Positions 3,292 through 61,209 of a DNA stretch of 64,000 nt are shown here, piece by piece; within the stretch, counting starts at the first letter, position 1; every line of letters begins with the position of its first letter. A program made the position numbers and the translations under genes. Below the pieces are notes generated by a model that did not search any database, had not been told where the DNA came from, and saw only the letters and a program-made list of their open reading frames with translations. Origin of the DNA: Verrucomicrobiota bacterium (GTDB lineage: Bacteria > Verrucomicrobiota > Verrucomicrobiia > Limisphaerales > UBA9464); contig JANYDN010000177.1 of assembly GCA_025363585.1 (NCBI GenBank), positions 7,749-71,748 of the forward strand. The letters run 5' to 3'.

Positions 3292-3316
3292 GAGGGGGCG
3301 GGGCGGGGATGCGCTG

Positions 3317-3618
3317 GAAGTTTCAAGTTTCAAGATTGAAGTTTCAAGAGGCCAGTTGCTCCGAGATGCCTGGGAGCGCGGGCGTCTCGCCTGCACTGGC
3401 TGAGGCTGCGTTGGCTTGGTCCACCGTCTCACGACGGCGGCTACGGGTTGCTGCTTCGCGTGGGGTGCCGGTTCCAAATGGTTATACCTAATTGGTGGAG
3501 CTTCGCGCGGGCGGAACGCCACGTTTCATCTGGTCTGCACGGGCGGGGACGCCCTTGTTTTGCGCAGCCGAGGACGGCCGCTCTACGCTTCAAACTTGAA
3601 ACTTGAAACTTGAAACTC
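3317..3618. repeat. Heptamer-array-bounded intergenic cassette I
   Basis: GAAGTTTCAAGTTTCAAGATTGAAGTTTCAAGAG (3317-3350) and CTTCAAACTTGAAACTTGAAACTTGAAACTC (3588-3618) are inverted. The interior holds a GTGA hairpin (3421-3440) and a GGGGACGCCC module (3537-3587). Confidence 0.85.
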
Positions 3619-3691
3619 GGACGCAGCCAGAGACGCCCGCCGCCACGGCCGGCCAGTCCACCGTCTCACGACGGCGGCCACGTTGCTTGCT

Positions 3692-7358: not shown

Positions 7359-7384
7359 GGGACGGAGCGAAGCGGGGCGCGGAG

Positions 7385-7967
7385 GAGTTTCAAGTTTCAA
7401 GTTTGAAGTTTTCAGCAGCGGGGGAGTTTTCAGTGATCAGTTTTCAGTGTTCAGGGAGGGGCATGAGCGGGATTCAAGGGGCGGGTTTCAAGTTTCAGGC
7501 GGCCGCACAACCGTGGCAGCCGACGTGAGTCGGTGGACCGCGACATCGCCGTCGAGCCCTCCCGCCACACTCACGAGGCGGGCCACGGTCGCGGGTGGCG
7601 CGAGCCACTGCAACCGCCTCCCAAGAGTTGAGTTTCATGGAACACCCGGCCGTGGTAGCCGAGGACATGAGGGCGATCCGAACCTTTGCGACGTGCGTGG
7701 CGATCCTCGCGGCGACGACCGGGTTGGGCCAGGGGACGTTTCAATTCTCCAACATCGGGCTGCCCGGACGACCGCTCATCACGGCGGGCTGCTGATGGGG
7801 GTGGGGATGCTTGCGGGCATGTGGATTGTCCGTCGCAAGAACTGAACGCGGAACGCGGAGTCCTTCGTGTCGCCGCGATCCGGCGGAGAGGCGAGGAATA
7901 ACTTTCACGCCAACTCGAACCAAGAGGGGCCGGACTCTTGAAACCGAAAACTTGAAACTTGAAACTC
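7385..7967. repeat. Heptamer-array-bounded intergenic cassette II
   Basis: GAGTTTCAAGTTTCAAGTTTGAAGTTTTCAG (7385-7415) and CTTGAAACCGAAAACTTGAAACTTGAAACTC (7937-7967) are inverted. The interior includes a TCAGTNN array (7427-7454). Confidence 0.8.
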
Positions 7968-9241: not shown

Positions 9242-10396
9242 TTGAAGGCGTCCCGCAAGGTCGCGCTGTTGATCGAGACGTCGAACGCCTACGCGCGCGG
9301 CCTTCTCCAGGGCATCATCGCGTACCTGCACGAGAACCAACCGTGGTCGTTGTACCTCGCCGAGCACGGTCGGGGCGACCGGCCGCCCGGTTGGCTCGCG
9401 TCGTGGGACGGCGACGGGATCCTGGCGCGGATCGAGACGCCGGCGATGGCGCGGGCGTTGAAGAAGGTGCGGGTGCCGATCGTGGACGTGAGCGCGGGAC
9501 GGTTGTTGCCGGACCTGCCGTGGTTCGAGACCGACGACGCGGCGATCGCGGTGCTGGCGGTCGAACACCTGTTGGAACGGGGTTTCAAGCAGTTGGCGTT
9601 TTGCGGCGACCCGCGGTTCAACTGGTCGAATTGGCGCGGGGAAAATTTCGCGCGGATCGCGGCGGAGGCGGGAGTGCCGTGCCACGTGTACCAGCCGTCG
9701 AAGCGGTTCCCGCGCGACCACACGGGGCAGGTGGAGGACATCGCGCTGTGGCTGAAGGCGCTGCCGAAACCGGTGGGCGTGATGGCCTGCTACGATTTCC
9801 GCGGCCAACAGGTGCTGGACGCGTGCCGCGCGCACGGGTTGCACGTGCCCGACGAGGTCGCGGTCATCGGCGTCGACAACGACGAGGTGCTGTGCGAGCT
9901 GTCGAACCCGCCGCTCTCGAGCGTGATTCCCAACGCGCACCGCACGGGCTACGACGCGGCGGCGTTGCTGGCCTCGATCATGTCCGGCGCGAAGCCGGCG
10001 AACCTGGTGAACCTCGTCCCGCCGATCGGCGTCGCGACGCGGCAGAGCACGGACGTGATGGCGATCGACGACGTGTTGATCGTGCGGACGGTGCGTTACA
10101 TCCGGGAGAACGCGTGCCTGGGGATCAACGTGCAGGACGTGCTGGACGCGGTGCCGCAGTCGCGGCGCCGGCTGGAGAACCGGTTCCGGAAGCTGCTGGG
10201 CCGGACGCCGCACGAGGAGATCATCCGGGTGCAGTTGAACCGGGTGAAGCGGTTGTTGGGGGAGACGGATTTGTCGTTGGCGGAAATCGCGGAGCGCGCG
10301 GGATTCGAGCACGTGGAATACCTGAGCGTGGTGTTCAAGAAGGAGATCGGGAAGCCGCCGAGCCAATACCGGCATGAGAACCGAAGGAAGGCGTAG
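9242..10396 (+). CDS. XylR-like transcriptional regulator (periplasmic-binding-protein-like sensor domain + AraC-type HTH)
   Basis: TTG start. N-terminal LacI/PBP-like fold (KVALLIETSNAYARGLLQGI..., VAVIGVDNDEVLCELSNPPLSSV). C-terminal AraC HTH (LSLAEIAERAGFEHVEYLSVVFKKEIGKPPSQYR). Sits 13 nt after the oxidoreductase gene. Confidence 0.8.
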   Translation: MKASRKVALLIETSNAYARGLLQGIIAYLHENQPWSLYLAEHGRGDRPPGWLASWDGDGILARIETPAMARALKKVRVPIVDVSAGRLLPDLPWFETDDAAIAVLAVEHLLERGFKQLAFCGDPRFNWSNWRGENFARIAAEAGVPCHVYQPSKRFPRDHTGQVEDIALWLKALPKPVGVMACYDFRGQQVLDACRAHGLHVPDEVAVIGVDNDEVLCELSNPPLSSVIPNAHRTGYDAAALLASIMSGAKPANLVNLVPPIGVATRQSTDVMAIDDVLIVRTVRYIRENACLGINVQDVLDAVPQSRRRLENRFRKLLGRTPHEEIIRVQLNRVKRLLGETDLSLAEIAERAGFEHVEYLSVVFKKEIGKPPSQYRHENRRKA

Positions 10397-10408
10397 CGGC
10401 GGGCGTGG

Positions 10409-10783
10409 CCACCGTCGTGAGACGGTGGAGCGGGAGAAGCTTGGCCACATCGGGTCGCGCCGATCCACCGCGTTACCGCGGCGGCCACGAGGCGAAGCGT
10501 TCCGGGCGGTCGGGAGGCGTGGCCGCCGTCGTGAGACGGTGGAGCGAGACCCGTCGGCCGCGCGAAGCGTCCCGCCGTCGCGGGATGCGGCGGGAAGGAG
10601 CGCATCCTTCGTCCGGCAGGAGCCGGACTACGGCGGCCATGGGAGCGACGCCACGCCGCTTTCCTCGCTGCGTGTCTCCGAAGCATGCCGTCAGAGCCCG
10701 ACGCAGGCGAGACGCCCGCGACTACCGCAGGCGAGGACGCCCGCGCTACGGTGCGTGTCGTGGCCGCCGTCGTGAGACGGTGG
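10409..10783 (+). repeat. Three direct copies of the CCRCCGTC-GTGA-GACGGTGG hairpin upstream of tRNA-Pro
   Basis: Copies at 10409-10428, 10523-10542 and 10764-10783, each within CGTGGCCRCCGTCGTGAGACGGTGGAGCG. Confidence 0.9.
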
Positions 10784-10876
10784 AGCGGGGTGAAGGCGAG
10801 ACAACCGCAGCGGAACCCACGCCCCAAAAATCGCGGTTGCGGGCGCGAAAGAAGCGGGGCTAGCTTCGGGCCAGTT

Positions 10877-10953
10877 CGGGACGTAGCTCAGCCCGGTAGA
10901 GCACTTGGTTTGGGGCCAAGACGTCGCAGGTTCAAATCCTGTCGTCCCGACCA
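10877..10953 (+). tRNA. tRNA-Pro (anticodon UGG), CCA encoded
   Basis: 77-nt cloverleaf folded by hand. Acceptor CGGGACG/CGTCCCG; D arm GCTC-AGCCCGGTA-GAGC; anticodon arm CTTGG-TTTGGGG-CCAAG (TGG at positions 34-36); variable ACGTC; T arm GCAGG-TTCAAAT-CCTGT; discriminator A + CCA. Confidence 0.93.
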
Positions 10954-14522: not shown

Positions 14523-14684
14523 GAGGAATTATCTCACGCCAAGGGGGACCAAGGCCGGCCAAGGCTTCATTCGAGTGGATTGGGACGCGTTCACCGAAAC
14601 CCACCGTTCGGTGAAACGACACCGCGGCGGTCGTTGCCCCCTTGGATGGCCTTGGTCCGGCTTGGCGTGAAATATTTCCCCTGC
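14523..14684. repeat. MITE-like head+hairpin element (CACGCCAAGG family), copy 1
   Basis: Left end GAGGAATTATCTCACGCCAAGGGGGACCAAGGCCGGCCAAGG. The right end is its imperfect reverse complement (CCTTGGATGGCCTTGGTCCGGCTTGGCGTGAAATATTTCCCC). The core arms 14534-14564 / 14640-14670 match at about 27 of 31 positions. Nested inner hairpin TTCACCGAA...TTCGGTGAA (14590-14615). Confidence 0.85.
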
Positions 14685-14745: not shown

Positions 14746-15354
14746 ATGCGCCTGGATCCCGGGACACTGTCGGTCCGCGATTTCTACCGTTGGATGATCC
14801 ACACGGTGGTGCCGCGGCCCATCGCGTGGGTGTCGACGCTCGACGCGTCGGGCGTGCCGAACCTCGCGCCCTTCAGCTTTTTCGCGCCGGTGGGCGCGAA
14901 TCCGCCGACGCTGATGTTTTGCCCGGCGAACGATCGCTTCGGTCGCCCGAAAGACACGCTGGCGAACATCGAGGCGACGGGGGAATTCGTGGTGAACCTC
15001 GTCCCGTTCGCGTTGGCGGAAAAGATGAACGCGACCTCGGCGACGTTGCCGCGCGGCGAGAGCGAGTTCGCGCGGTTCGACGTCGCTTCGGAGGCGTCGG
15101 CGGTCGTGAAACCGGCCCGGGTGAAGGGCGTGCCGATCGCCTACGAATGCCGGCTCGACCGGGTGATCCGTTTTGCCGAGGGACCCGCGGCGGCGAACGC
15201 CGTGTTCGGGCGGATCGTGTCGCTGCATGTCGACGACGCCACGATCGGTCCGGACGCTTGGCCGGGGATCGCGGCGATGGATCTGGTGGCGCGGGCCGGC
15301 GGCGAATTCTACATGCGGTCGGGCGAGGTGTTCGCGATGGAGCGGCCGGAGTGA
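14746..15354 (+). CDS. Flavin reductase-like FMN-binding domain protein
   Basis: FYRWMIHTVVPRPIAWVSTLDASGVPNLAPFSFFAPVGANPPTLMF is the classic flavin-reductase-like domain N-terminal pattern. Confidence 0.8.
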   Translation: MRLDPGTLSVRDFYRWMIHTVVPRPIAWVSTLDASGVPNLAPFSFFAPVGANPPTLMFCPANDRFGRPKDTLANIEATGEFVVNLVPFALAEKMNATSATLPRGESEFARFDVASEASAVVKPARVKGVPIAYECRLDRVIRFAEGPAAANAVFGRIVSLHVDDATIGPDAWPGIAAMDLVARAGGEFYMRSGEVFAMERPE

Positions 15355-15470
15355 AACGAGCGGGTGCGGATGTTGGGAAGGTGGTGGAGAGCTGGCTTGG
15401 TCCGCTCTCTCACGAGGGCTGCCACGTCGGCACGCTTTCCAAGCGGCGTCGCCCCGGACAATCTCCGCGC

Positions 15471-16346: not shown

Positions 16347-16596
16347 GCCGGGAACGATGCATTCGGCAAGGGGGAATTTCTCACGCCAAGGGGAGGAAGG
16401 CCGACAATAAGCACGGCACTTGGGTTGGGATCCAAATAACGGATCCGAAGCAGGGCACGGGCGGGGACGCCCGTGTTTTGCGCAGGCGGGGACGCCCGCT
16501 CTACGTCGTGGACTGCCCACGGAAAACTGATTACTGACTACTGAAGTGGGTGAAATGATACCCGTCGGGATAGCGCTCCCTAGCCGGATCCAGCCA

Positions 16597-16840: not shown

Positions 16841-19800
16841 ATGTCGAAGCCACGGTCCTCCAGCCATGCCCACCGGGCGATCCGCGTCGCCGCGCTCGCG
16901 TTGTGCCTGGCCGCGTTTGGACAGAGCCGTCTTCGATGGGAACCGGGCCCTGGCCATCGCAGCGCCGCGTTGCCGGTGCCGGCGACCGGCCACACCGGGT
17001 TCACGCTGCTCGACGCGGCATCGATCGGCATCGACTTCACCAACGCCCTCGCGCCCGAGCGCGTCCAGGCGTTCCAGAACCTGATGAACGGCGCCGGACT
17101 GGCCGCGGCGGACGTCAACGGCGATGGCCTGGTCGATCTCTATTTCGTCCATCGCGAGGGCAGGAACCAATTGTTCCTGAACCTCGGCGAAGGCCGTTTC
17201 ACCAATGCCACCGCGGGTTCCGGCGCTGCCTGCACGAACCTCGTCTCGACCGGCGCCGTGTTCGCGGACGTGAACGGCGACGGCTCGCCCGACCTTCTCG
17301 TGTCCAGTTTCGGAGGCCCGCACGCGCTGCTGCTGAACGACGGCAAGGGACATTTCTCCGACGTCACAGCGTCGTCGGGCATCGGCGGCAAATCGGGATC
17401 GACGTCGCTCGCGCTGGCGGACCTCGATGGCGACGGCGCGCTCGACCTCTATTGGTGCAATTTCGCGGTGCAGGCGATCCTGCGCGACGGCGGGATGATC
17501 ACGACGCGGATGATCAACGGGCAGCCGCAGGTGACGGGACGCCACGCGAACCGCCTGCGGATCGTGGACGGGACGTTGTACGAGTACGGCGATCCCGACG
17601 TGCTGTACCACAACGACGGCAAGGGACATTTCACGCCGGTGCCATGGGAATCGGCATTCATCGATGGCTCCGGGCGCCCGGTTCCACCGCCGCCGGACTT
17701 TGGCCTAGCGGTGCAGATCCGCGACGTGAACGGCGACGGGTTTCCCGACATTTACGTCTGCAACGATTTCCAGACGCCGGACCATCTTTGGCTCGGCGAC
17801 GGGAAGGGACACTTCCGCGAGGCGCCGGACATGGCGTTGCGCAACATGAGCTACGCGTCGATGGGCGTGGACTTCGCGGATCTCGACCGCGACGGGCGGA
17901 TGGATTTCATCACCGTGGAGATGCTGGATCCGGACCTGAGGAAGCATCTGCGCACGATCGGTTCAGCCGGGCCGAACGCGCGTTCGCCGGGCCAATACCG
18001 GAACCGCGAGGATCTCCCGCGCAACGCGCTCTACCGGAACCGCGGCGACGGCACGTACGCCGAGATCGCGAATTTCTCCGGCGTGGCGGCGACCAGTTGG
18101 TCGTGGACCCCGCTGTTCCTCGACGTCGATCTCGACGGATGGGAAGACCTGCTCGTTTCGAACGGACACCTTCACGACGTCAACAACCGCGACATCACCG
18201 CGAAGGTGGTGCCGAAGCCGGGGCAAAGCCTGCAGGCGACGAAGGACCAGTTGCTGTCGTTCCCGCCGCTTGAGCCGCCGAAGTTCGCGTTCCGCAACCG
18301 CCACGACCTGACGTTCGAGAACACCAGCGAGCAGTGGGGCTTCGACACCCATCGCATGGCGCACGGCATGATCGCGGTCGATCTCGACGAGGACGGCGAC
18401 ATGGACATCGTGGCCAACACGCTGCGCGGACCGCCCCTCGTCTTCCGCAACGAATCGATCGCGCCGCGAGTCGCGGTCCGCGTGAAGGGCCTCGCGCCGA
18501 ACACCGGCGGCATCGGCGCGCGAATCACGCTTCGCGGCGGTCCGGTCACGCAGACCCAGGAGATCGTCGCCGGCGGGCAATACCTCTCGCACGGCGAGAT
18601 GCAGCGCACCTTCGCGGCGGGCACGGGGCCGATGACGCTGGAAGTCCGCTGGCGCTCGGGAAGGCGCAGCGAGGTCACCGGTGTCCGCGCGAACCGCATC
18701 TACGAGATCGACGAGACGGGCGCGGCCGACGGGCCGCCCGAACCGAAGCTCGACGCGGTGCCGCCACTGTTCGCCGACGTCTCCGCGTTGCTGGGCCACG
18801 CGCACGTCGAGGATGCGTTCGACGATTTCGAGCAACAGCCGTTGTTGCCGCAGCGTTATTCCCAACTCGGGCCCGGCGTCGCGTGGAGCGATATCGACGG
18901 CGACGGACACGTCGATCTCGCGATCGGGTCCGGCAAGGGCGGGCCGATCTCCGTTTTCGCCGGCGACGGCAAGGGCGGGTTTGCGAAGGTGCGGGAATCG
19001 GCGCCCGTGCCCGAAGACGCGGGCGCGTTGCTCGCGATGCCGGAAGCGGACGGGCGGCACTCGGTGATTGCGGCGATCGCGAACTACGTTTCCGGCGGCG
19101 AGTCGAACGCCCCGGCCGCGTTGCGATTCGTCCCGCGCGACGGCGTGGCCGCGGCGTTCGAACCGCTCGCGGGAAACAGCGCGAGTTTCGGCGCACTCGC
19201 CGCGGGCGACGTGGATGGCGACGGCGATCTCGACGTCTTCGCCGGGGCACGGCTCACGGCGCGGCGTTGGCCGCAACCCGGCGGTTCGATTTGGTTCCGC
19301 AACGACGGTGGGAAGCTGGTGCGCGACGAGGCGGCCAGCGCGCCGTTCGCCGCCGTCGGCCCGGTCGCCGATGCATTGCTGGTCGATCTCGATGGCGACG
19401 GCAAACCCGAACTCGTCCTCGCGTGCGAGCTCGGCCCGGTCCGCGTCTTTCATCGCGACGCGTCCGGCTGGAAGGAAACGGATCCGGGAGTGGACACCGC
19501 GGGCATTCCGGGAATCGCGCCGGGAATCACCCGGCTGCGCGCGCTCGAAGGTTGGTGGAACAGCGTCGCCGCGGCGGATTTCGACGGCGACGGGCGCATG
19601 GATCTCGTGGTGGGCAACCGCGGCCGGAACTCGTCCTGGGAAACATGGGGCGACCACCTGCCGCGCGTCGAATGGGCCGACGGGGGCGACGGGTCGGTCG
19701 CCGTGGTGGAAGGCGTGATGGAAACCGGCGTGGTGCGGCCGGTGCGGGCCCGCAACGTTCTGGGCGGCGTTCTGCAGGACCTCGCGACGCGGTACCCGAC

Positions 19801-20530: not shown

Positions 20531-20697
20531 CACGGGTGTCTCGCCTGCGGTAGTCGCGGGCGTCCCCGCCTGCGTGAGGTGAGCCGGCGGAGAAACCAGT
20601 CTCCGCGCGAAGCGCCTTGGAGTACGGCGGAAAGGTCCTCGGCACTTCCTTGCAACGCCACGGGGGGAGCCCTTGCTGGCAGACTTCGCATGCTTCG

Positions 20698-20771
20698 GTG
20701 ACGGCAGGGCCGCCGTCACCCACGCAGGTTGAGGCCCCCGCCTCGGTGGGTGGCACCGGCTCGGGTGCCAC
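20698..20771 (-). repeat. Composite two-hairpin element (GTGACGGC-N6-GCCGTCAC + GTGGCACC-N6-GGTGCCAC)
   Basis: Hairpins at 20698-20719 and 20750-20771. The same composite occurs in reverse-complement arrangement at 27028-27100. Confidence 0.85.
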
Positions 20772-20912
20772 GGCTTGCGTGGGGAAAGCTCAATGCGGGC
20801 GAGGACGCCCTTGTTTGTGCAGCCGGGACGGCCGCCCTACGGCAAACGCAGGCGGGGACGCCCGCGCTACATCCGCCGCGTCACCGCGTCGGCCACGACT
20901 TGGACGCCCGCG

Positions 20913-24583: not shown

Positions 24584-25144
24584 CCCGCGCGGCGTCCACC
24601 GGGGTGGGGTGGCGTTCCTCCCACTGCTCGTGGCGGCCGTGGTGACACGGCGGATCCGCAGTCCCTAGCGCGGGCTTCGTCGCCTGCGATTGGGTCTTCC
24701 GCGTTCCCGCGGCGGGGACGCCTTTGGAGTGCGGCGGGAAGCCATCGGATGGCGCCACGCCGCTTTGAGGCCGGCGATGCGGAACATCGTTGAAAGCGGT
24801 GTGGCGCTTTCGCCTGGCCGCCATAGTCCGGCTCTCGCCGGACGAAGTAGGCGAGCGCTTCCCGTCGCACGGCTCCAAAGCCGCTTCTTGCGGCCGACTG
24901 GTTTCGATCCACCGTCTCACCACGGCGGCCACGACACGTGCCGTAGCGAGGGCTTCCCTGCTTGCGATTGATTTTTGCGAATTCGGCAACTCGCCTGAAA
25001 GCGGTGTGGCGTCGCTCCGCTCCTTCCCACCGCACTCTCCAAGGCGCTTCGCGCGGCAACTGGTTTCGACCCACCGTCTCACGACGGCGGCCACCCCTCG
25101 CCACCCGCCTCGACTTCCGTCCGCGCATTTTCCATTTTCTTCCC

Positions 25145-27027: not shown

Positions 27028-27100
27028 GTGGCACCAGGGCCGGTGCCACCCACCGTGGCTCAGCCCAGACCCGCGTGGGTGACGGCGGCCCTGCCGTCAC
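27028..27100 (+). repeat. Composite two-hairpin element (GTGGCACC-N6-GGTGCCAC + GTGACGGC-N6-GCCGTCAC)
   Basis: Hairpins at 27028-27049 and 27079-27100, joined by CCACCG...GCGTGG as in the 20698-20771 copy. Confidence 0.85.
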
Positions 27101-27148
27101 TGGAGCCATGCGAAGCCACGGGCCAGGCTTCTGGCACGGGCCCACCGC

Positions 27149-30955: not shown

Positions 30956-30966
30956 GGGGCCAAGTA

Positions 30967-31015
30967 GTCAGTGGTCAGTGGTCAGTGGTCAGTGGTCAGT
31001 GGTCAGTGGTCAGTG
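30967..31015. repeat. Perfect heptanucleotide microsatellite (GTCAGTG)x7
   Basis: Counted directly: 49 nt, 7 identical units, starting 12 nt after the DUF6807 stop. Confidence 0.95.
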
Positions 31016-32850: not shown

Positions 32851-32989
32851 GGACGAATCATGCCCAACGCCGGGGCCCTCGCGCAACGCCCGCGGGGGTG
32901 GGTGACGGCGGCCCTGCCGTCACCGGAGCAGGGTTTGTGTCAAGCCATGCACCCAAAGGTGACGGCAGGGCAGCCGTCACCCACGAAGG

Positions 32990-35900
32990 TTATTTCAACG
33001 TCCCGAGGAACTCGATGACGTCGCGCAATTCCTGGCGCGTGATCAATTGCCCGAGCCCGTCCGGCATCCCGCTCAGACCCTTCTCGCGGGTCTTCACGTC
33101 GCCTTTTTTCAGGTGGACCTCCCCGTCCTCGGGCGACAGCAGGACGATCTCCGCGTCGGTCTCCGATTTCACCACGCCCGCCAGTCCCTGGCCGTTGTTG
33201 AGCGTGATCATCGAGGTCTCGAATCCCGCCGCGACCTGCTTGTTCGGCAACACGACGGATTCCAGGAGATACTCGCGCGGTTGGCGCGTCGCGATGCCGA
33301 CGAGGGACGGGCCTGCGTTGCCGCCGCCGTCGGTGCCGATCTGGTGGCAACGCGTGCACGCGACGGACGCGTTCTCGTAGAAGATTTTCCGGCCGCGCGC
33401 GGCATCGCCGCCGGCGAGCGCCTCGCGGTACGGCGTCAATTCGTCCTTCGGCAATTTCCAATCCTGGTAGGTGGCCAACCGCGATTTCACCGCGTCGGAC
33501 GTTCGCTTTCCCGCGGCCTCGACGAGGTCGAGCATCACCTCGTTCGCGACCGCGCGGTTCATCAGCTTGTCGAGCCACTCGGCGAGGATGGCGTCCGCGG
33601 CCTCGCTCTTGAGATCGCCGAGCGAGGCGAACGCGGATTGCTGTTCGGCGAGCGTGCCCGACACCAGCGTCGCCGCGAGTTGTCCCGCGGCGTCGCCGGG
33701 ATTCAGGCGCGCGTTGATCCGGGACGCGACGAGGCGGAGCGTGTCGGCGGGATCTGCCGACGCGACCTTGAGAAGATCAGCCGTTTCCGCGGCGTTGACA
33801 TCGGCCAACGACTGCAGGGCGGCGGCCCGCGCGGGCACCGCGTTGTTCGTGTCGCGCACGACGCCGGCGAGCACCGGTCCGGAATTGGTCAAAGCGAGCC
33901 GTGCGGAGGCACCGATCGCCGCGATCGCCGCGGGCCCGCCGGCACGGGTCGCCGTCGCGTCGAGGACCGCGGGAAGGATCCCGGCCAACGCGTCGCGCGC
34001 CGGCAGCGGATCCCGCGCGGGCAACGGTCGGTACACGCCGACGACGTGGTCGCGCGCCGGCGGTTTGGCCCATTGCGACAGCGCGTTCAACGCGTCGGCG
34101 CGGATCGATTCGGGAAGGTCGGCGCGGGTGGCGAGCGTGGCGAGGCGGGCGGCGGATTCGGCATCGCCGACGCGGAAGTTGGCGTTCACCACGCGCAGCA
34201 ACATCGGGGAAAGCTGGTCGAGGGGCGCGTTGGTCCACGGCAACGGCTGCGCGGCGCGGAGGTCGCGGATCGTTCCCGCGGCGACCTCGTAGGCGCCGGT
34301 GTTGGTGGTCGCCAGCGCCGCGAACTGTTTCAGCAACGAGGGCAGGCGCGCGGCGTCGGCCATGTTGGCCAAGGCGGGAAGGGCGCCCGGGATCGGCGTG
34401 TCGTTGATCGCGCGCGCCGCTTCCAGGACGAGCCACGGATCGGGGTCGTCGAGCAACGCGCGCACCGACTCCGAGCCGGTCCGGCGAAGCGACAGCAACG
34501 CGGTGAGGCGCACGGATCGGTTGGTGCTGGCGGTCCACGCCGACAAGTCTTTCGCCGCGGGATGCCGCGACAACGCCGTCGCCGCGACCGAACGCCACAC
34601 CGGGTCGGCATCGACCGGATGCGACGAGACGGCCTCGCGCAACGCCGCGTCGAAGCCTTTCCAACCCGCGAGCCCCAGGGCTTCCGCGGCGGCCGCGCGT
34701 TGGCGTGGATTGCCGCCGGCCAGAAGCTCGCCCAGCGCCTCGTTGAGGAAGCGGTTCCACGGGGCGGAATGGTCCGGGTTCGCGAGGCGGGCGTCGCGGG
34801 CGCGGCTTTCGCCGGCCCACCAGGCGATCGCGCGCGCGGCCTGCACCGCGGTCTCGCCGTGTTCGGGACGGAGCACCGAAAGCAACGCGGGCCGCCATTG
34901 GGAGGAACGCCCTTCCATGCCCAGGCACCACACCGCGTGGATGCGCGCGAACTCGTTCGGTCCGTCCTGCGCCATGCGTCCGAGGCGCCGCTCGATGTCG
35001 GCCACGGGATACGCGCCGCCCTTGGCGCCGCGGTTCACGCGGAGGCGATTCGCCAATTCATACTGCGCGGCCAGGCGGACGCGCAGGTCGCGGTGCGCGA
35101 ACAGCCGCATCAATTCGTCCTCCGGCCGCGCGGCCATTCCCTCGTCGATCAACCGGCGCGTCTCGGCGATCACCGGGTCCTTGTTGTCGGGGAACGTCGC
35201 GCGGTAGATGCGGCCCTTGTTGCTCTTCGGCCAACCCTCGTGCCAATCGGCGAACCACAACGCGCCGTCGGGACCGATGTCCACGTCCGGCACCAGCGTG
35301 TTCCACAGGAACTCGTCGTGCGCGAACATCTCGTAGCCGCTGCCCGCGGGCCGGACCGCGATGGAGCCGATGCCACTCTTGGCGCTGGTGCCCTTGAAGT
35401 AGGCGAGGAAGAAGCGCTGGCGGCTGCGTTCGTCGAGGCCGGTGCCGTAGTCGTAGACCAACCCGCTCGGGCCGTCGCCGATGTTCGCCACGGGCGGGAG
35501 CAGGTAGGCCGCCTGTCCGTCGAACCGCGGCACCCAGAGGCGTTCCATGTTCCACGGACCCGCGTTGCCGAGCGGCGCGTGCTGGTAGCCGACGCGCCAT
35601 CCGCTGTCCGCGCCGTCGACGATCTGCACCCAGCGCTCGCGGTCGCCCTGGTCGGAATCGTTGTCCCCCGTGAACCAATCGCCGAGCTCGTTGAACGCGA
35701 GTTCCTGCGGGTTGCGCAGCCCGCGGTGCACGATCTCGAGACCGCTGCCATCCGGCTCGCACCGGAACACCGCGCCCTCGTCCGGGACGTCCACCACGGT
35801 TCCTTCCCGCGTGGCCACGTGCACGCCGCGGTCGCCGCACGAAAAATAAAGCCTTCCGTCGGGCCCGAATTTCAGCCCGTGCAGGTCGTGTCCCGTGAAG

Positions 35901-47485: not shown

Positions 47486-48262
47486 TCAGTGCCGTTTCAT
47501 CGGGGCCAAGGGCGCGAGCGCGACCGTCGGGTTGTTTTGCGCGAAATAGTTCATCGACCATTCGGTCGGGAACAAGGCCACCGCGTTTTGCTCGAGGTCG
47601 AACGCGAAACGCCCGCCGGTCGGCAGCGACAACGCGTCGAGGTCTTCCGGCTTGGTGCCTTCCGGAAGCCAACGCACGGTCGTGAACGGGGCCGGTTCGC
47701 GCCGGGTTTCCGCGCCATACTCGGTCTCGAGACGAAATTGAAGCACCTCGAATTGCAACGGGCCGACCGCCGCCAGCAACGGCACGCGACTCGCCGTGTC
47801 CTTGAGATGGAACGCCTGCGCGACGCCTTCGAGCAGCAGTTGGTCGAGCCCCTGCCGGAATTGTTTGAACTTCGCCGTGTTCGGATTGTGGAAGTACTCG
47901 AACACCTCCGGCGTGAACCGCGGGATCTCGTCGAACCGGACCGACGCGTCCGTCGTCAGCGTGTCCCCGATGCCGAATCCGTCGTGCCCGACGAGCCCGA
48001 TGATGTCTCCGGGATACGCCTCGTCGACGGTCTCGCGTTCGTTGCCGAAGAGCTTGTGCGAGGAACTGAGGCGCACTTTGCGGCCGGACTGCACGTGCAG
48101 GACGGTCATGTCGCGCTCGAACTTGCCGCTCACCACGCGGACGAACGCGATGCGGTCGCGGTGGCGCGGATCCATGTTGGCCTGGATCTTGAAAATGAAC
48201 CCGCTGAACTGCGGGTGTTCCGGCGCGATGAATCGCCCATCAGACGTTGGTTCGCTCGACAT
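47486..48262 (-). pseudogene. prfC: Peptide chain release factor 3 (PrfC), C-terminal ~half only; GTPase domain missing
   Basis: FSGFIFKIQANMDPRHRDRIAFVRVVSGKFERDM...EAYPGDIIGLVGHDGFGIGDTLT...FTPEVF...LLAAVGPLQFEVLQFRLETEYG aligns by eye to E. coli RF3 from about residue 285 to the end. Upstream in-frame sequence is translated hairpin repeats, and the next gene ends at 48473, so no G1-G5 motifs are present. Confidence 0.65.
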
Positions 48263-48334
48263 GACACGTGGGCCGCACCGGCGGCCCGGCGGAGGAAACC
48301 AAATCCGGCCGGGTCGGCGCGAGTTTTTGTGGCG

Positions 48335-48466
48335 GCGATCGTGAGATCGCGGACCCAGACGTAGCAGCGATCGTGAGATCGTGGACCTGCTTGCCGTGGC
48401 AGCGATCGTGAGATCGCGGATCACGACCGGATCACGGCCGCCGGTTCCGCCGTCTCACGACGTCCG
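48335..48466. repeat. Cluster of four GTGA-loop hairpin repeats
   Basis: GCGATC-GTGA-GATCGC at 48335-48350, 48367-48382 (GATCGT variant) and 48402-48417. A degenerate inverted copy CCGCCGTCTCACGACGTCCG lies at 48447-48466. Confidence 0.9.
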
Positions 48467-48472
48467 CCACGT

Positions 48473-51115
48473 TTACTGTCGCGTCGCCCGGTAGAAACGC
48501 GGCACGTCCGTCGCCGGCAACGCATCGTGCGCAAACGACGCCGCGGAACCGTTCGTGAAATCGCCCAGCGGCGCCCAATGCTTGAGATCGGTGCTGTATT
48601 CCAGACGGAGCGTCGCGCCCGGTTCCGCCGCCGGATCTTCCGCCACGATTTCCATGCCGCCCTCCATGCCGCCGATCGCCACCAATCGCGGACCGCCCGA
48701 TCCGCCCGTCGTCGCCAGCGCTTTCACCAGCGCAACCGGCCGGCCATCGAACGAGGCCCTGCCCGACAAAGTTGCCTTGCCGGCGTCGGCAAAGGTGCAG
48801 CGCATCGTCCGGGAATTGCCGTCCGTGAACGGCCCCCAGCGCACGACGCCCGCGCCCGCGTCGTAGCTTCCGTCGGCGGTGATCGTCGAGGGCTTCGTCG
48901 CCACGCGGACCTCAAGCGCCTGGGCCGATACCGTTGGTCCCGGGATGAGACGCAACTCGAGGATTGAAGCGGAGCCGTTGGTCCCGGGCGTCCACGACGC
49001 CGTCGCGAGACCGGAATGGCGCGGCGGCCGGGCCGGCCCGGTTCCGGCCGAGGCGTCGCCTCCGGTCGAGGGCACCAGGAGAGGCGCGCTGACCCACCAG
49101 AGCGGCGCCGGGCCCGCAGAGGGATCGAATCGATAGGTCTCTCCCTCGCTCCACAGTTCGCCGGCGCGCGTCACGAAATCCATCGGGATGGTTCCGCCCG
49201 CCCACGCCTTGCCCGAACGCCACGCGGCGGCATACGACGTCAACTCCTCCGCAGTGATCCGGTCGTCCGCGGGAGCGATGTCCGCCGGATGCCGCCTGCC
49301 GCCTTGGATCAGCAGATCCCCGCCGATCGGGGCGGAGTTTCCATCGGCCACGTATTCCCCGTCGAATACCGCTTGGTCGACCCACGCGTCGTTGGGCGTG
49401 ACGTGATAGGTCAACGTCCGCTGGGCATCGCCGAAGAACGGCCCGAATTTCACCGCGCGGTTGGGCCCGTCGAAGACCCCGTCGTCGACTCCCGTCACGT
49501 GCCACCACGGCATGTCCGGCGGAGGCACCGCGCCGCCCTCGTGCAGGAAAGGCGGGTGATCCAGAATCACCCACGCCTGCGTTCCCGGTGCCGGGGTCAC
49601 GTCGATCGTCACCGCGAACGCCGTCCCGCCCGCGGCCGACGCCGGCAGATGCCGTATCGCCGCTCCCTTGGGCGGAACGATGTCTTCCACCACGATCGTG
49701 ATGGGCGCCGAAGTCACCCGCGTTCCCGCCGCGTCGATTCCCTCGGCGTGGAGCGTGTGGATGCCGGCCGGCGCGTCCTTCCAGACGAAAGAAATGGGAA
49801 GCTCCGCGCCCGGGGCCATTTTGCAGGTGATGCAACTCCAGTCCCCGCCGCCGATCAACCGGTCGCCCGCAAGGAAATCCACGTGCGTCAAAAGTCCCGC
49901 CGGGTCCCGCGCTGTCACCTTCAACTCGATCGGTGTTCCAACCGGGAAACGCGCGCCGTTCGCCGGGTGGATCCAAGTGATCGTCGCCGGATCGATGACG
50001 GGACCGTCGATGATCTCGCCGCGGGCGCGCGCGGGATCGCCGAGGACGTACGTGGGAAGGATTCCCGCCGACGGCGAATCCACGAGCTTCAGTTCGACCG
50101 TCTCCGTGCCTTCGGCGAGGGAATCGGCGACCGTCCAAAACGTGACGGTCGTCCCGGTTTGGCCGGCCGGCATGAGGACGTGCAACAGCGTCGTCGGGTC
50201 GATGAACGGGCCGTTGGGACCCGCGAGCGCGACGTAGTCGAGACCCGGGGTCGCGGTGCCGCCCAGGGAATAAAACACGGCGAGGTCGTGCGCCGCCGGG
50301 GCCGACAACGCGAAGCGGAAGATCAACGCTCGGCTCTTGAGATCGCCTGATTCCGACGCGTTCGCCTTCTCGGCGAAGACCGTCGCCACCGGCGTGTCGG
50401 TCGAACCCTGGACCAGGAATTTCCAAGCCGACTCCAGCTTAGTACCGTCGGCCGAGACCGCGGTGGCAACGACCGCGTGAGGTCCCGCCGGCGGATTCGT
50501 CCAGGGCCAGGTGAGGGTCCGCGGGCGGCCCGGGAAGATCGCGTCCTTGGTGAGAATCTCGGCGACGCCGATCAAAACCGTTCCCTCGTGGAATTCGACG
50601 CGTCGGATTTCAGAGAGCGGATCGAACGTGGTCACGACGAGCGGCACGATGCCGGGAGTCTTGACGGTGTCCCCCGGAAGGGGTCCCAGCCAGACCAACG
50701 ACGGCCCGCCGGTCAGGAGTTTCAGGACGTTCACCTTGGTCGGATCCGACGTGGCGAGATTCCCCGAGGCGTCGATGTGGCGCACCGTCAGCGCGTGGAT
50801 GCCGGGAGCCGCTCCATTCCACACGAACTCGTGCCGGACGGGAACGCCGGGAGGGACGGCCACCAGCGTGTCGATGTGCGACCTGCCGATGAAGTGGCCG
50901 TCCGCCAGGAAATCGAGGGTGTACGCCGCCTCGCCGCTGCTGACGGCGGTGGCGACGATCGGGATGGGCGACCCGGCGGGGAACATCGCGTTGGCCTTGG
51001 GCTGGATGATCGCCAGTTTGTAGACCGGCAGCGGTCCGTCGGTTTGTGCGAGGCCCGCGAACGACGCGATCCAGATCGCGGAAAGGAACGGAAGGATGCG
51101 GAAAATGGCTTTCAT
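48473..51115 (-). CDS. Large secreted protein with several Ig-like (Big_7-type) domains, a Calx-beta domain and a conserved C-terminal STDL..W..FYR tail
   Basis: Signal MKAIFRILPFLSAIWIASFAGLA. Three Ig-like units (FPAGSPIPIVATAV...VWNGAAPGIHALTVRHIDASGN; FPVGTPIELKVTARDPAGLLTHVDFLAGDRLIG...GIHTLHAEGIDAAGT). Calx-beta-like FYSLGGTATPGLDYVAL...ADSLAEGTETVELKL. Confidence 0.8.
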   Translation of the reverse strand: MKAIFRILPFLSAIWIASFAGLAQTDGPLPVYKLAIIQPKANAMFPAGSPIPIVATAVSSGEAAYTLDFLADGHFIGRSHIDTLVAVPPGVPVRHEFVWNGAAPGIHALTVRHIDASGNLATSDPTKVNVLKLLTGGPSLVWLGPLPGDTVKTPGIVPLVVTTFDPLSEIRRVEFHEGTVLIGVAEILTKDAIFPGRPRTLTWPWTNPPAGPHAVVATAVSADGTKLESAWKFLVQGSTDTPVATVFAEKANASESGDLKSRALIFRFALSAPAAHDLAVFYSLGGTATPGLDYVALAGPNGPFIDPTTLLHVLMPAGQTGTTVTFWTVADSLAEGTETVELKLVDSPSAGILPTYVLGDPARARGEIIDGPVIDPATITWIHPANGARFPVGTPIELKVTARDPAGLLTHVDFLAGDRLIGGGDWSCITCKMAPGAELPISFVWKDAPAGIHTLHAEGIDAAGTRVTSAPITIVVEDIVPPKGAAIRHLPASAAGGTAFAVTIDVTPAPGTQAWVILDHPPFLHEGGAVPPPDMPWWHVTGVDDGVFDGPNRAVKFGPFFGDAQRTLTYHVTPNDAWVDQAVFDGEYVADGNSAPIGGDLLIQGGRRHPADIAPADDRITAEELTSYAAAWRSGKAWAGGTIPMDFVTRAGELWSEGETYRFDPSAGPAPLWWVSAPLLVPSTGGDASAGTGPARPPRHSGLATASWTPGTNGSASILELRLIPGPTVSAQALEVRVATKPSTITADGSYDAGAGVVRWGPFTDGNSRTMRCTFADAGKATLSGRASFDGRPVALVKALATTGGSGGPRLVAIGGMEGGMEIVAEDPAAEPGATLRLEYSTDLKHWAPLGDFTNGSAASFAHDALPATDVPRFYRATRQ

Positions 51116-59013: not shown

Positions 59014-59073
59014 GCGCGGAACCTCGTTCCACACCGTGGCCGCGGCAACTTGGAACTCCGTAGGGGAGGGGGT

Positions 59074-59198
59074 GAGTTTCAAGTTTTCAGTTTCAAGTTT
59101 GAAGCGGCAGGGGATGAAGCCCGCGTGGGTGACGGCGGCCCTGCCGTCACTCGACAACCTGCGCCGGCTTCAAACTTGAAACTTGAATCTTGAAACTC
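59074..59198. repeat. 125-bp hairpin cassette: 31-nt heptamer-array inverted repeats flanking a GTGACGGC hairpin
   Basis: GAGTTTCAAGTTTTCAGTTTCAAGTTTGAAG (59074-59104) and CTTCAAACTTGAAACTTGAATCTTGAAACTC (59168-59198) are near-perfect reverse complements. GTGACGGC-GGCCCT-GCCGTCAC lies at 59129-59150. Confidence 0.9.
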
Positions 59199-61085: not shown

Positions 61086-61209
61086 CGCGACCGCAACATG
61101 GGTGGGTGGTGTGGCAGCCATCGTGAGATGGCGGACTTCGCAATCCGTCGGGAATTATCCGCAACCGCCCGTTAGCCAGGATCGCCGCGGTTCCTTCATC
61201 GTGGCGCCG

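Follow-up and report, generated by a model that had tools for sequence, protein, structure and literature searches.

What kind of element are the short hairpins that recur between the genes of a Verrucomicrobiota genome, their stems differing from copy to copy and still pairing? The question arises from a 64,000-nt stretch of contig JANYDN010000177.1 (the window in what follows), and in particular from positions 10409-10783. An initial annotation, made from the letters alone, described a dispersed family of at least 12 hairpins with a C-GTGA-G core, an invariant GNRA loop, a constant C-G closing pair and stems varying in a base-pair-preserving manner. It suggested either a repetitive extragenic palindromic (REP) sequence, possibly arranged as in bacterial interspersed mosaic elements (BIMEs), or a hairpin recognized by a protein or by the ribosome. 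By definition, a REP is a short palindrome preceded by a GTAG or GTGG head (Nunvar et al. 2010, PMC2817692). The analysis described below indicates that the window hairpins are very probably REPs of this GTAG/GTGG type, recognized as single-stranded DNA (ssDNA) hairpins by a REP-associated tyrosine transposase (RAYT).

The repeat unit and its copies

The base composition of the window is 61-71% G+C. The octamer TCGTGAGA was found in it 12 times, against 2.24 occurrences expected (none of 100 shuffles reached 12), and all 12 lie within members of the hairpin family. Reading the flanks of every CGTGAG gave a constant order: GTGGC, one free base, a 6-nt arm, GTGA, the complementary arm and GGA(C). 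The GG of the tail can pair with the C of the head and the free base, so that the stem may reach 8 bp and begin directly after GTGG. The whole unit is 26 nt long and consists of a GTRG head, an 8-bp stem, a GTGA or GTAA loop and a GGA(C) tail. The traits looked for in a REP included a short (20-40 bp) imperfect palindrome that forms a stem-loop and a GT[AG]G tetranucleotide at one end; the 26-nt unit, with its 8-bp stem and 4-nt loop, has both.

A search for the 25-nt pattern GTGGCNGCNNNCGTGAGNNNGNGGA, allowing up to three mismatches, returned 19 matches in the window (0.75 expected), 17 of them true family members; a second, independent structural regular expression retrieved 16 of these 17. 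A covariance model trained on the gap-free alignment of the 17 copies (alignment A1) scored them at 30-50 bits, and the next non-member at 24 bits. The family amounts to 17 clear copies and one degenerate copy, listed here with the model scores and with one doubtful match.

3420-3444, minus strand: copy GTAGCCGCCGTCGTGAGACGGTGGA with a GTAG head; 45.3 bits; intergenic, flanked by two minus-strand genes
3657-3681, minus strand: copy 10 nt past the recQ stop codon, co-oriented with recQ; 46.3 bits
7513-7537, plus strand: copy with stem GCCGAC/GTCGGT; 43.9 bits; divergent intergenic region
7559-7586, minus strand: degenerate copy GTGGCCCGCCTCGTGAGTGTGGCGGGAG, stem type CGCCTC/GAGGCG as in locus L124, with a 2-nt indel; read directly, only 7.7 bits with the model
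10405-10429, plus strand: copy with A-T replacing G·T and a perfect 8-bp stem; 45.7 bits; 8 nt past the stop codon of a xylR-like gene
10464-10488, minus strand: copy with GTAA loop, G-C closing pair and stem GCCGCG/CGCGGT; 41.3 bits; inverted partner of the plus-strand copies at 10405 and 10519
10519-10543, plus strand: copy of the consensus type; 49.7 bits
10760-10784, plus strand: copy of the consensus type; 49.9 bits; 92 nt upstream of tRNA-Pro, head-to-head with a minus-strand copy of a second family at 10727
15401-15425, minus strand: copy with stem GCCCTC/GAGAGC and one C/A mismatch; 42.5 bits; orientation opposite to both neighbouring genes
18079-18111, plus strand: doubtful match GTGGCGGCGACCAGTTGGTCGTGGAC with an AGTT loop, within an ASPIC/UnbV gene; 23.9 bits, E 7e-4 (rough calibration)
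20872-20896, minus strand: copy with stem GACGCG/CGCGGC and a G-C closing pair; 40.8 bits; 16 nt past the stop codon of a DUF1501 gene and co-oriented with it; abuts a REP of the second family
24630-24654, plus strand: copy with stem GCCGTG/CACGGC and a G-C closing pair; 44.0 bits; divergent region
24908-24932, minus strand: copy with a G/G mismatch at the loop-closing position; 47.1 bits
25070-25094, minus strand: copy whose 3' flank is common with that of 24908 (repeat family D3, 94%); 43.5 bits
48329-48353, plus strand: copy with stem GCGATC/GATCGC, first of three head-to-tail; 30.7 bits; repeat family D5
48361-48385, plus strand: copy with a GTAG head and stem GCGATC/GATCGT; 43.1 bits
48396-48420, plus strand: copy with stem GCGATC/GATCGC; 43.9 bits; inverted pair with 48446
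48446-48470, minus strand: copy with stem GACGTC/GACGGC; 42.8 bits; 2 nt past the stop codon of a Big_7 gene and co-oriented with it
61111-61135, plus strand: copy with stem GCCATC/GATGGC; 41.2 bits; 25 nt past the stop codon of an ABC-transporter gene and co-oriented with it

All 12 positions named in the initial annotation (3421, 3658, 10409, 10523, 10764, 24909, 25071, 48335, 48367, 48402, 48447 and 61117) were recovered, and five further copies were added (7513 plus, 10464 minus, 15401 minus, 20872 minus and 24630 plus), as was the degenerate one at 7559-7586 (minus). The conserved unit is longer than it had described, by the GTGGC head and the GGA tail. The head is GTGG in 15 of the 17 copies and GTAG in two, and positions G5, T6 and G8 of the alignment are invariant. 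Both the head (GTGGC, twice GTAGC) and the GGA tail are conserved in sequence, not in pairing. The loop, said to be invariant, is GTGA in 16 copies and GTAA in one, all of which fit GNRA. The closing pair had been described as constant; it is C-G in 13 copies, G-C in three and a G/G mismatch in one.

The 18079-18111 segment was the sole other match to the covariance model in the window at E < 0.01. It was considered as an intragenic REP, a type reported in Opitutus terrae, and set aside: its loop is AGTT, its score is 24 bits and it sits in a conserved protein motif. It is probably a chance match or an old intragenic copy.

Genes were called from codon usage and checked with Pfam. By these calls all 17 copies are extragenic, as had been claimed, and they are spread over eight separate intergenic regions; intergenic DNA makes up 15.6% of the window. 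They occur in both orientations (nine on the plus strand and eight on the minus strand), so that the 64 kb show another REP trait, many extragenic copies in either direction. Five of the eight regions lie between same-direction genes, one between convergent and two between divergent genes; REPs are reported to lie mostly downstream of genes, between same-direction and convergent open reading frames (ORFs; Di Nocera et al. 2013, PMC3733652). No common function links the genes beside the copies: recQ, peptidase M2, a GFO/IDH/MocA oxidoreductase, the xylR-like regulator, tRNA-Pro, flavin reductase, a sugar-phosphate isomerase-like protein, ASPIC/UnbV, DUF1501, PSCyt2/PSD1, KDPG aldolase, the Big_7 protein, the ABC transporter and DUF6662.

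The copies at 15401, 20872 and 61111 are single. Dimers and BIME-like clusters, also looked for as a REP trait, are formed by 10405+/10464-/10519+/10760+, 48329+/48361+/48396+/48446- and 7513+/7559-. Within these, 10405+/10464-/10519+, 48396+/48446- and the pair made by 7513+ with the degenerate copy 7559- are inverted, while 48329, 48361 and 48396 run head-to-tail with 7-10 nt between copies. The interval 10409-10783 holds four copies of the GTGA family and two of the second family, which fill the 480 bp from the xylR-like stop codon to tRNA-Pro. The common 3' flank of 24908- and 25070-, 162 bp apart, indicates that these two are products of a local duplication.

Stem covariation and related repeats at RAYT-like genes

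When the 8-bp helix was imposed on the 17 copies, 91.2% of the cells were paired, against 78.0% in shuffles, and two-sided changes were found in four of the eight stem pairs (14 cells). The covariation score was 0.421 against 0.160 in shuffles, a value that none of 500 shuffles reached; shifting the partner by 1-3 columns lowered pairing to 18-54%. The base-pair-preserving variation first noticed by eye is borne out by these figures. Because tandem neighbours are recent duplicates, the independent stem variants were counted as about five or six only (CGT/ACG, GAT/ATC, CAT/ATG, CGA/TCG, CGCG/CGCG and CGTG/CACG). The third stem pair is G·T in nine copies, G-C in seven and A-T in one, and all stem cells together hold nine G·T against one C·A; G-T pairing is frequent in REPs (PMC3733652). 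Predicted ssDNA folds of the head strand and its complement gave -8.0 against -5.2 (copy 10519), -6.5 against -5.7 and -6.7 against -5.5 kcal/mol, the head-strand values of -6.5 to -8.0 kcal/mol corresponding to z-scores of -2.3 to -3.8. Since the head strand folds more strongly than its complement, the modelled fold is favoured on the strand that carries the 5' GTGG.

The 25-nt pattern was scanned against 185,579 species genomes and matched at least 106 loci. Among the matches listed, about half belonged to Verrucomicrobiota or other members of the Planctomycetes-Verrucomicrobia-Chlamydiae superphylum (Opitutaceae, Limisphaerales, Verrucomicrobiae and Victivallales). The other half of the matches listed were scattered over high-GC phyla with 0-2 of the three free pairs complementary, as expected by chance, and were used as an informal control. 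The dominant verrucomicrobial form among the matches listed, GTGGC-N-GCGAGC-GTGA-GCGAGT-GGA, agrees with the window family in the outer four pairs (G·T included), the loop and the closing pairs, and has a tandem G·A/A·G mismatch for its two middle pairs.

Presence and absence were found to differ between close relatives, a further trait looked for in a REP. Two REP-bearing intergenic regions of the window, of 745 and 400 bp, correspond to 127 and 13 bp in a syntenic locus (L194; GFO, M2 peptidase and RecQ, the latter with 88% identity), and the covariance model found no match in the 12.5 kb of this locus. No copy was found in locus L107 (84% XylR identity). Locus L109 holds three copies of a related form, GTAGC-G-GACGTG-GTAA-CACGGC, which were recovered by the covariance model and missed by a regular expression requiring the GGA tail. 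This patchy occurrence fits mobile or expanding lineage-specific DNA, not a conserved regulatory RNA.

RAYT genes were sought by tblastn in the window and in the retrieved loci of relatives, the queries being the sequences in Additional file 5 of Di Nocera et al. 2013. Locus L065, from an uncultured Opitutus, contains a RAYT-like gene whose product has 40% identity to R. baltica RB11751 (E 2e-35) and is more distant from Oter_2468 (30%); an inverted REP pair begins at its stop codon. The clade to which it belongs has 389 database homologs at E<=1e-20, several of them named 'REP element-mobilizing transposase RayT' by the Joint Genome Institute. The motifs LMPDHxH and AxYIxENPVRAGL are invariant in its alignment (A2), and its sole match in the PDB is 4ER8, the Escherichia coli TnpA_REP (E 1e-5), with the HUH motif and the catalytic tyrosine aligned.

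The RAYT-like gene is flanked on both sides by GTRGC-N-[6]-[4]-[6] units in four genome loci and about forty metagenome loci (L110-L153). Their stems vary and yet stay paired: CTGAGC/GCTCAG, CGCCTC/GAGGCG, GCTTTC/GAAAGC, GAACGC/GCGTTT, GCCGCT/AGCGGT and GCGCTC/GAGCGC. Among 92 distinct units from the RAYT loci, two-sided change affected seven of the eight pairs (188 cells against 65 in shuffles) and the covariation score was 0.659 against 0.165, reached by none of 500 shuffles, the set having been pre-filtered for at least six of eight pairs with G·T counted as a pair, which inflates its percentage of pairing and its G·T excess. In the metagenome loci L149 and L150, from a different organism (54-55% G+C), the RAYT-like gene is surrounded by inverted pairs in which TCCGTC-GTGA-GACGGG alternates with TCGATC-GTMA-GATCGG; these stem cores are the same two cores as in the window, and the model trained on the window gives them 21-34 bits. 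Across the wider family the loops follow G-N-N-A (GTGA, GTAA, GTCA, GCCA, GGCA and GGTA).

Some further observations concern these loci. In L110 (7034-10603) and L113 (7010-10621), and also in L111 (1-1456), the RAYT-like gene lies directly downstream of gcvP (glycine dehydrogenase). Its recurrence at this site in separate genomes suggests that the locus is single-copy and inherited vertically. In L112 (9750-11010) and L099 (2426-2650), REP pairs form long tandem arrays around or near the RAYT-like gene, with periods of 60 and 101 nt, which resemble the large BIME clusters of enterobacteria. Spurious 'SRERERV...' leaders arise where gene callers carry the N-terminus of the RAYT-like protein on through the REPs that lie upstream of it.

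The GT[AG]G head, the short imperfect palindrome, the extragenic sites in both orientations, the dimers and clusters and the sister units flanking RAYT-like genes all support the REP/BIME-like reading that the initial annotation had offered. Its alternative of a ribosome-recognized hairpin found nothing in its support. Selection on a single-strand structure is supported by the pair-preserving stems; since the loops of the wider family are G-N-N-A, an RNA-specific GNRA fold is probably not the conserved feature. We infer that this genome has a RAYT, that the enzyme acts on the units and that they are, or recently were, mobile. In the mechanism we propose, what the RAYT (an HUH/Y1 tyrosine transposase) would recognize is the hairpin formed by the head-bearing strand when single-stranded; the enzyme would cleave this strand at the head or close to it, and so copy or move units into intergenic DNA. 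Such copying would generate singles, inverted pairs and tandem clusters like the BIMEs of E. coli. If recognition depends on the fold, stems would drift only through base-pair-preserving changes, and stem covariation would therefore be expected. Where copies just past stop codons are transcribed, they may also shield the 3' end of the mRNA, an effect reported for the REPs of E. coli.

Alternative explanations and known systems

Besides the filtering of the 92 units, several points weigh against recognition of these hairpins by a RAYT. With the published RAYT sequences as queries, tblastn found no RAYT gene in the 64-kb window, and the link to such an enzyme derives from homology to repeats in related genomes. 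The RAYT-like clade matches the NCBIfam family REP_Tyr_transpos (NF047646) at E 1e-11 to 1e-16, but with 44-59 bits where the curated cutoff is 80, and it gave no Pfam match. Mobility, for its part, would follow from presence and absence in a relative. Finally, five of the six stop-proximal copies, 2-25 nt past the stop, are co-oriented with the upstream gene, an excess that is not significant and that hints at a role at the RNA level.

The last point leads to the explanation that survives best among the rivals, namely that the hairpins are primarily RNA elements of 3' untranslated regions (3' UTRs). Capped by a stable C(GUGA)G tetraloop of the GNRA class, they would terminate transcription without a U-tract or block 3'-5' exonucleases, and selection would act on the RNA. 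Apart from the co-oriented copies, this explanation would accommodate the fit of every window loop to GNRA, the G·T positions, which become G·U pairs in RNA, and the argument in PMC3733652 that many REPs are transcribed. The orientations of the copies are nevertheless mixed, eight running with the gene, five against it and five lying in divergent promoter regions, which should contain no 3' end. None of the copies is followed by a T-run or matches Rfam. The loops GCCA, GTCA, GGCA and GGTA of the wider family are not GNRA, close relatives lack hairpins behind the same genes, and the same units flank RAYT-like genes. We therefore consider a primary RNA role quite unlikely. Somewhat less doubtful, but still a tentative idea, is that the REP family has been co-opted as an RNA element: the C(GUGA)G hairpins 2-25 nt past stop codons would set or protect mRNA 3' ends in a phylum where classical U-tract terminators seem scarce, with the widespread verrucomicrobial RAYT-like clade as the supplier.

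Templated correction of quasi-palindromes is an established mutational process, and the hairpins could be locally duplicated palindromes without function or mobility, their arms kept complementary by template-switch repair and their covariation purely mutational. The copies at 24908 and 25070 and the run at 48329-48420 are indeed local duplicates with common flanks. Such repair should make mismatches vanish, yet the G·T of the third pair and the tandem G·A/A·G of sister families are kept across many genomes; the unpaired head and tail are also conserved, the copies are dispersed over 58 kb and eight regions, and the association with RAYT-like genes is left unexplained. This explanation appears highly improbable. 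Least credible of all is that the copies are bound as double-stranded DNA by a host protein, such as gyrase, a nucleoid protein or a regulator. In its favour one may cite the binding of gyrase and IHF by E. coli REPs (cited in PMC3733652) and the conserved head and tail of the window copies; against it, the flanking genes are functionally unrelated, and both the pair-preserving change and the asymmetry of G·T over C·A point to a single-strand fold, not to duplex readout.

Three standard identities were rejected. Intrinsic (Rho-independent) terminators do not agree with tails that read GGAGCGGG, GGACCAAG, GGATCACG and similar, which lack a T-run, and a terminator scan had no match at the copies. 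An array of clustered regularly interspaced short palindromic repeats (CRISPR) would have identical repeats at regular intervals with unique spacers of about 25-40 nt, and does not agree with spacers of 7-10 nt in the tandem run and dispersal of the other copies; the only CRISPR match in Rfam (18.6 bits against a gathering score of 42) lies outside the copies. As to curated structured RNAs (Rfam 15), only tRNA-Pro reaches its gathering score in the window, and nothing relevant was found in 10380-10880 at E<=1.

Read as REPs with a RAYT, the hairpins belong to a known kind of element, already described in O. terrae, and do not represent a new kind of system. The REPs of that species named GTAG-17 to -20 (PMC3733652), from the same phylum, are the closest: they have the GT[AG]G head (GTGG-headed REPs are noted, and predominate in one family), their stems measure 6-9 bp, include G-T pairs and differ between sub-families by complementary changes, and they form dimers and clusters; several families coexist in one genome, as in the window. 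The comparison with these named families was made by description only, not by consensus, and the window comes from another organism, the best named homologs of its proteins being from Verrucomicrobiales and Limisphaerales (about 70%). RepRanger (PMC12306157) and Nunvar et al. 2010 make no mention of Opitutus or Verrucomicrobia.

The REP/BIME and TnpA_REP system of E. coli (4ER8) shares the head tetranucleotide followed by an imperfect hairpin, the inverted pairs of two REP types (as Y and Z), seen here at 48396+/48446- and in L149 and L150, and the HUH and Y-x-x-x-N-P motifs, present in the RAYT-like proteins beside the sister repeats. It differs in that the E. coli REP is about 35 nt long with a bulged stem and a larger loop, whereas the window unit has an 8-bp stem, a 4-nt G..A loop and a GGA(C) tail; the verrucomicrobial RAYT is, moreover, only distantly related to the E. 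coli enzyme. The REP doublets forming hairpins (REPINs) of Pseudomonas fluorescens SBW25 (Bertels and Rainey 2011, PMC3116915) likewise have GTGG heads and inverted doublets, together with a single-copy, vertically inherited RAYT, comparable to the gene beside gcvP in L110 and L113. In contrast, inverted pairs occur in just three of the eight window regions, their spacers (21, 25, 30 and 34 nt) are mutually unrelated, a small sample for the REPIN question, and tandem and single copies are common. Finally, the subterminal hairpins of IS200/IS605 elements are also ssDNA hairpins recognized by a Y1 HUH transposase, but they bound a transposase gene in a multi-copy insertion sequence, while the window hairpins are dispersed alone.

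Other repeats in the window and meaning of the family

A second REP family shows the same layout of a head and an 8-bp stem, with a TCCC loop: GTAG-(N)-CGCGGGCG-TCCC-CGCCTGCG, with the relative CACGGGCG-TCCCC-GCCCGTG. Its copies often abut those of the GTGA family (10749/10760 and 20870/20872), and the family is similar to repeats of O. terrae that are translated as GTGVPPV/HGRDARAT where they lie within genes (PMC3733652). A third family of intergenic palindromes, GGGTGACGGC-GGCCCT-GCCGTCAC(C), has five copies with 76-97% identity. Runs of CTTGAAACTTGAAACTC with an imperfect 8-nt period lie just upstream of gene starts in both directions, and may be a promoter or 5'-leader motif of the lineage. 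The positions are as follows.

10703-10749, minus strand: second REP family or relative
16450-16505: second REP family or relative
20550, plus strand: second REP family or relative
20848, minus strand: second REP family or relative
31321, plus strand: second REP family or relative
3537-3587: second REP family or relative
20697-20730, 27070-27104, 32893-32934, 32958-32991 and 59120-59154: third palindrome family
2550-2593, 3568-3611, 7924-7967 and 59155-59198: CTTGAAACTTGAAACTC runs
3300-3351, 7374-7425 and 59063-59114: inverse CTTGAAACTTGAAACTC runs

A tandem array of about seven copies of the 7-nt CAGTGGT (repeat family D17) lies between two genes at 30963-31015, and a related sequence, AGTTTTCAGTGATCAGTTTTCAGTG, at 7425-7449. 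The 25-nt motif CC(C)CCTTGGCGTGAGA(T/A)AATTCC was found on the minus strand in two intergenic regions, at 14533 and 16380, upstream of the plus-strand genes at 14746 and 16841; it contains CGTGAG and is unrelated to the REP hairpin. Directly after tRNA-Pro, the segment 10954-14600 has a lower G+C content (61-64%) and weakly coding ORFs, a GNAT domain being the only Pfam match. An island may have integrated here at tRNA-Pro; a search for its boundary found no duplicate of the 3' end of the tRNA that would mark an att site.

The prfC gene (release factor 3, RF3; 47486-48470, minus strand) is truncated at the REP cluster and comprises EF-G domain 2 and RF3_C only. An approximate E. coli RF3 sequence aligned over residues 275-503 only, to 48301-47600, and no G domain was found anywhere in the window. 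The same strand carries an unrelated Big_7 gene, with its end at 48473. In the RF3 of O. terrae (Oter_2700), a REP dimer lies in frame at residues 304-318 (supplement of PMC3733652), which appears to be the same inter-domain linker as the break in the window gene. A rearrangement mediated by REPs, a split gene or a faulty assembly at the repeat could each account for the truncation.

For annotation, the REP reading would account for some 18 short hairpins of the window and for several ORF predictions that are too long: ORFs extended through REP copies are artefacts, and contigs may break or be mis-joined at them. For the phylum, a compact 26-nt REP architecture, with a GTRG head, an 8-bp stem and a G..A loop, appears to be common to many Verrucomicrobiota and tied to one divergent clade of RAYTs. 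The compensatory change of its stems from lineage to lineage offers a comparative data set for how a RAYT reads its hairpin.

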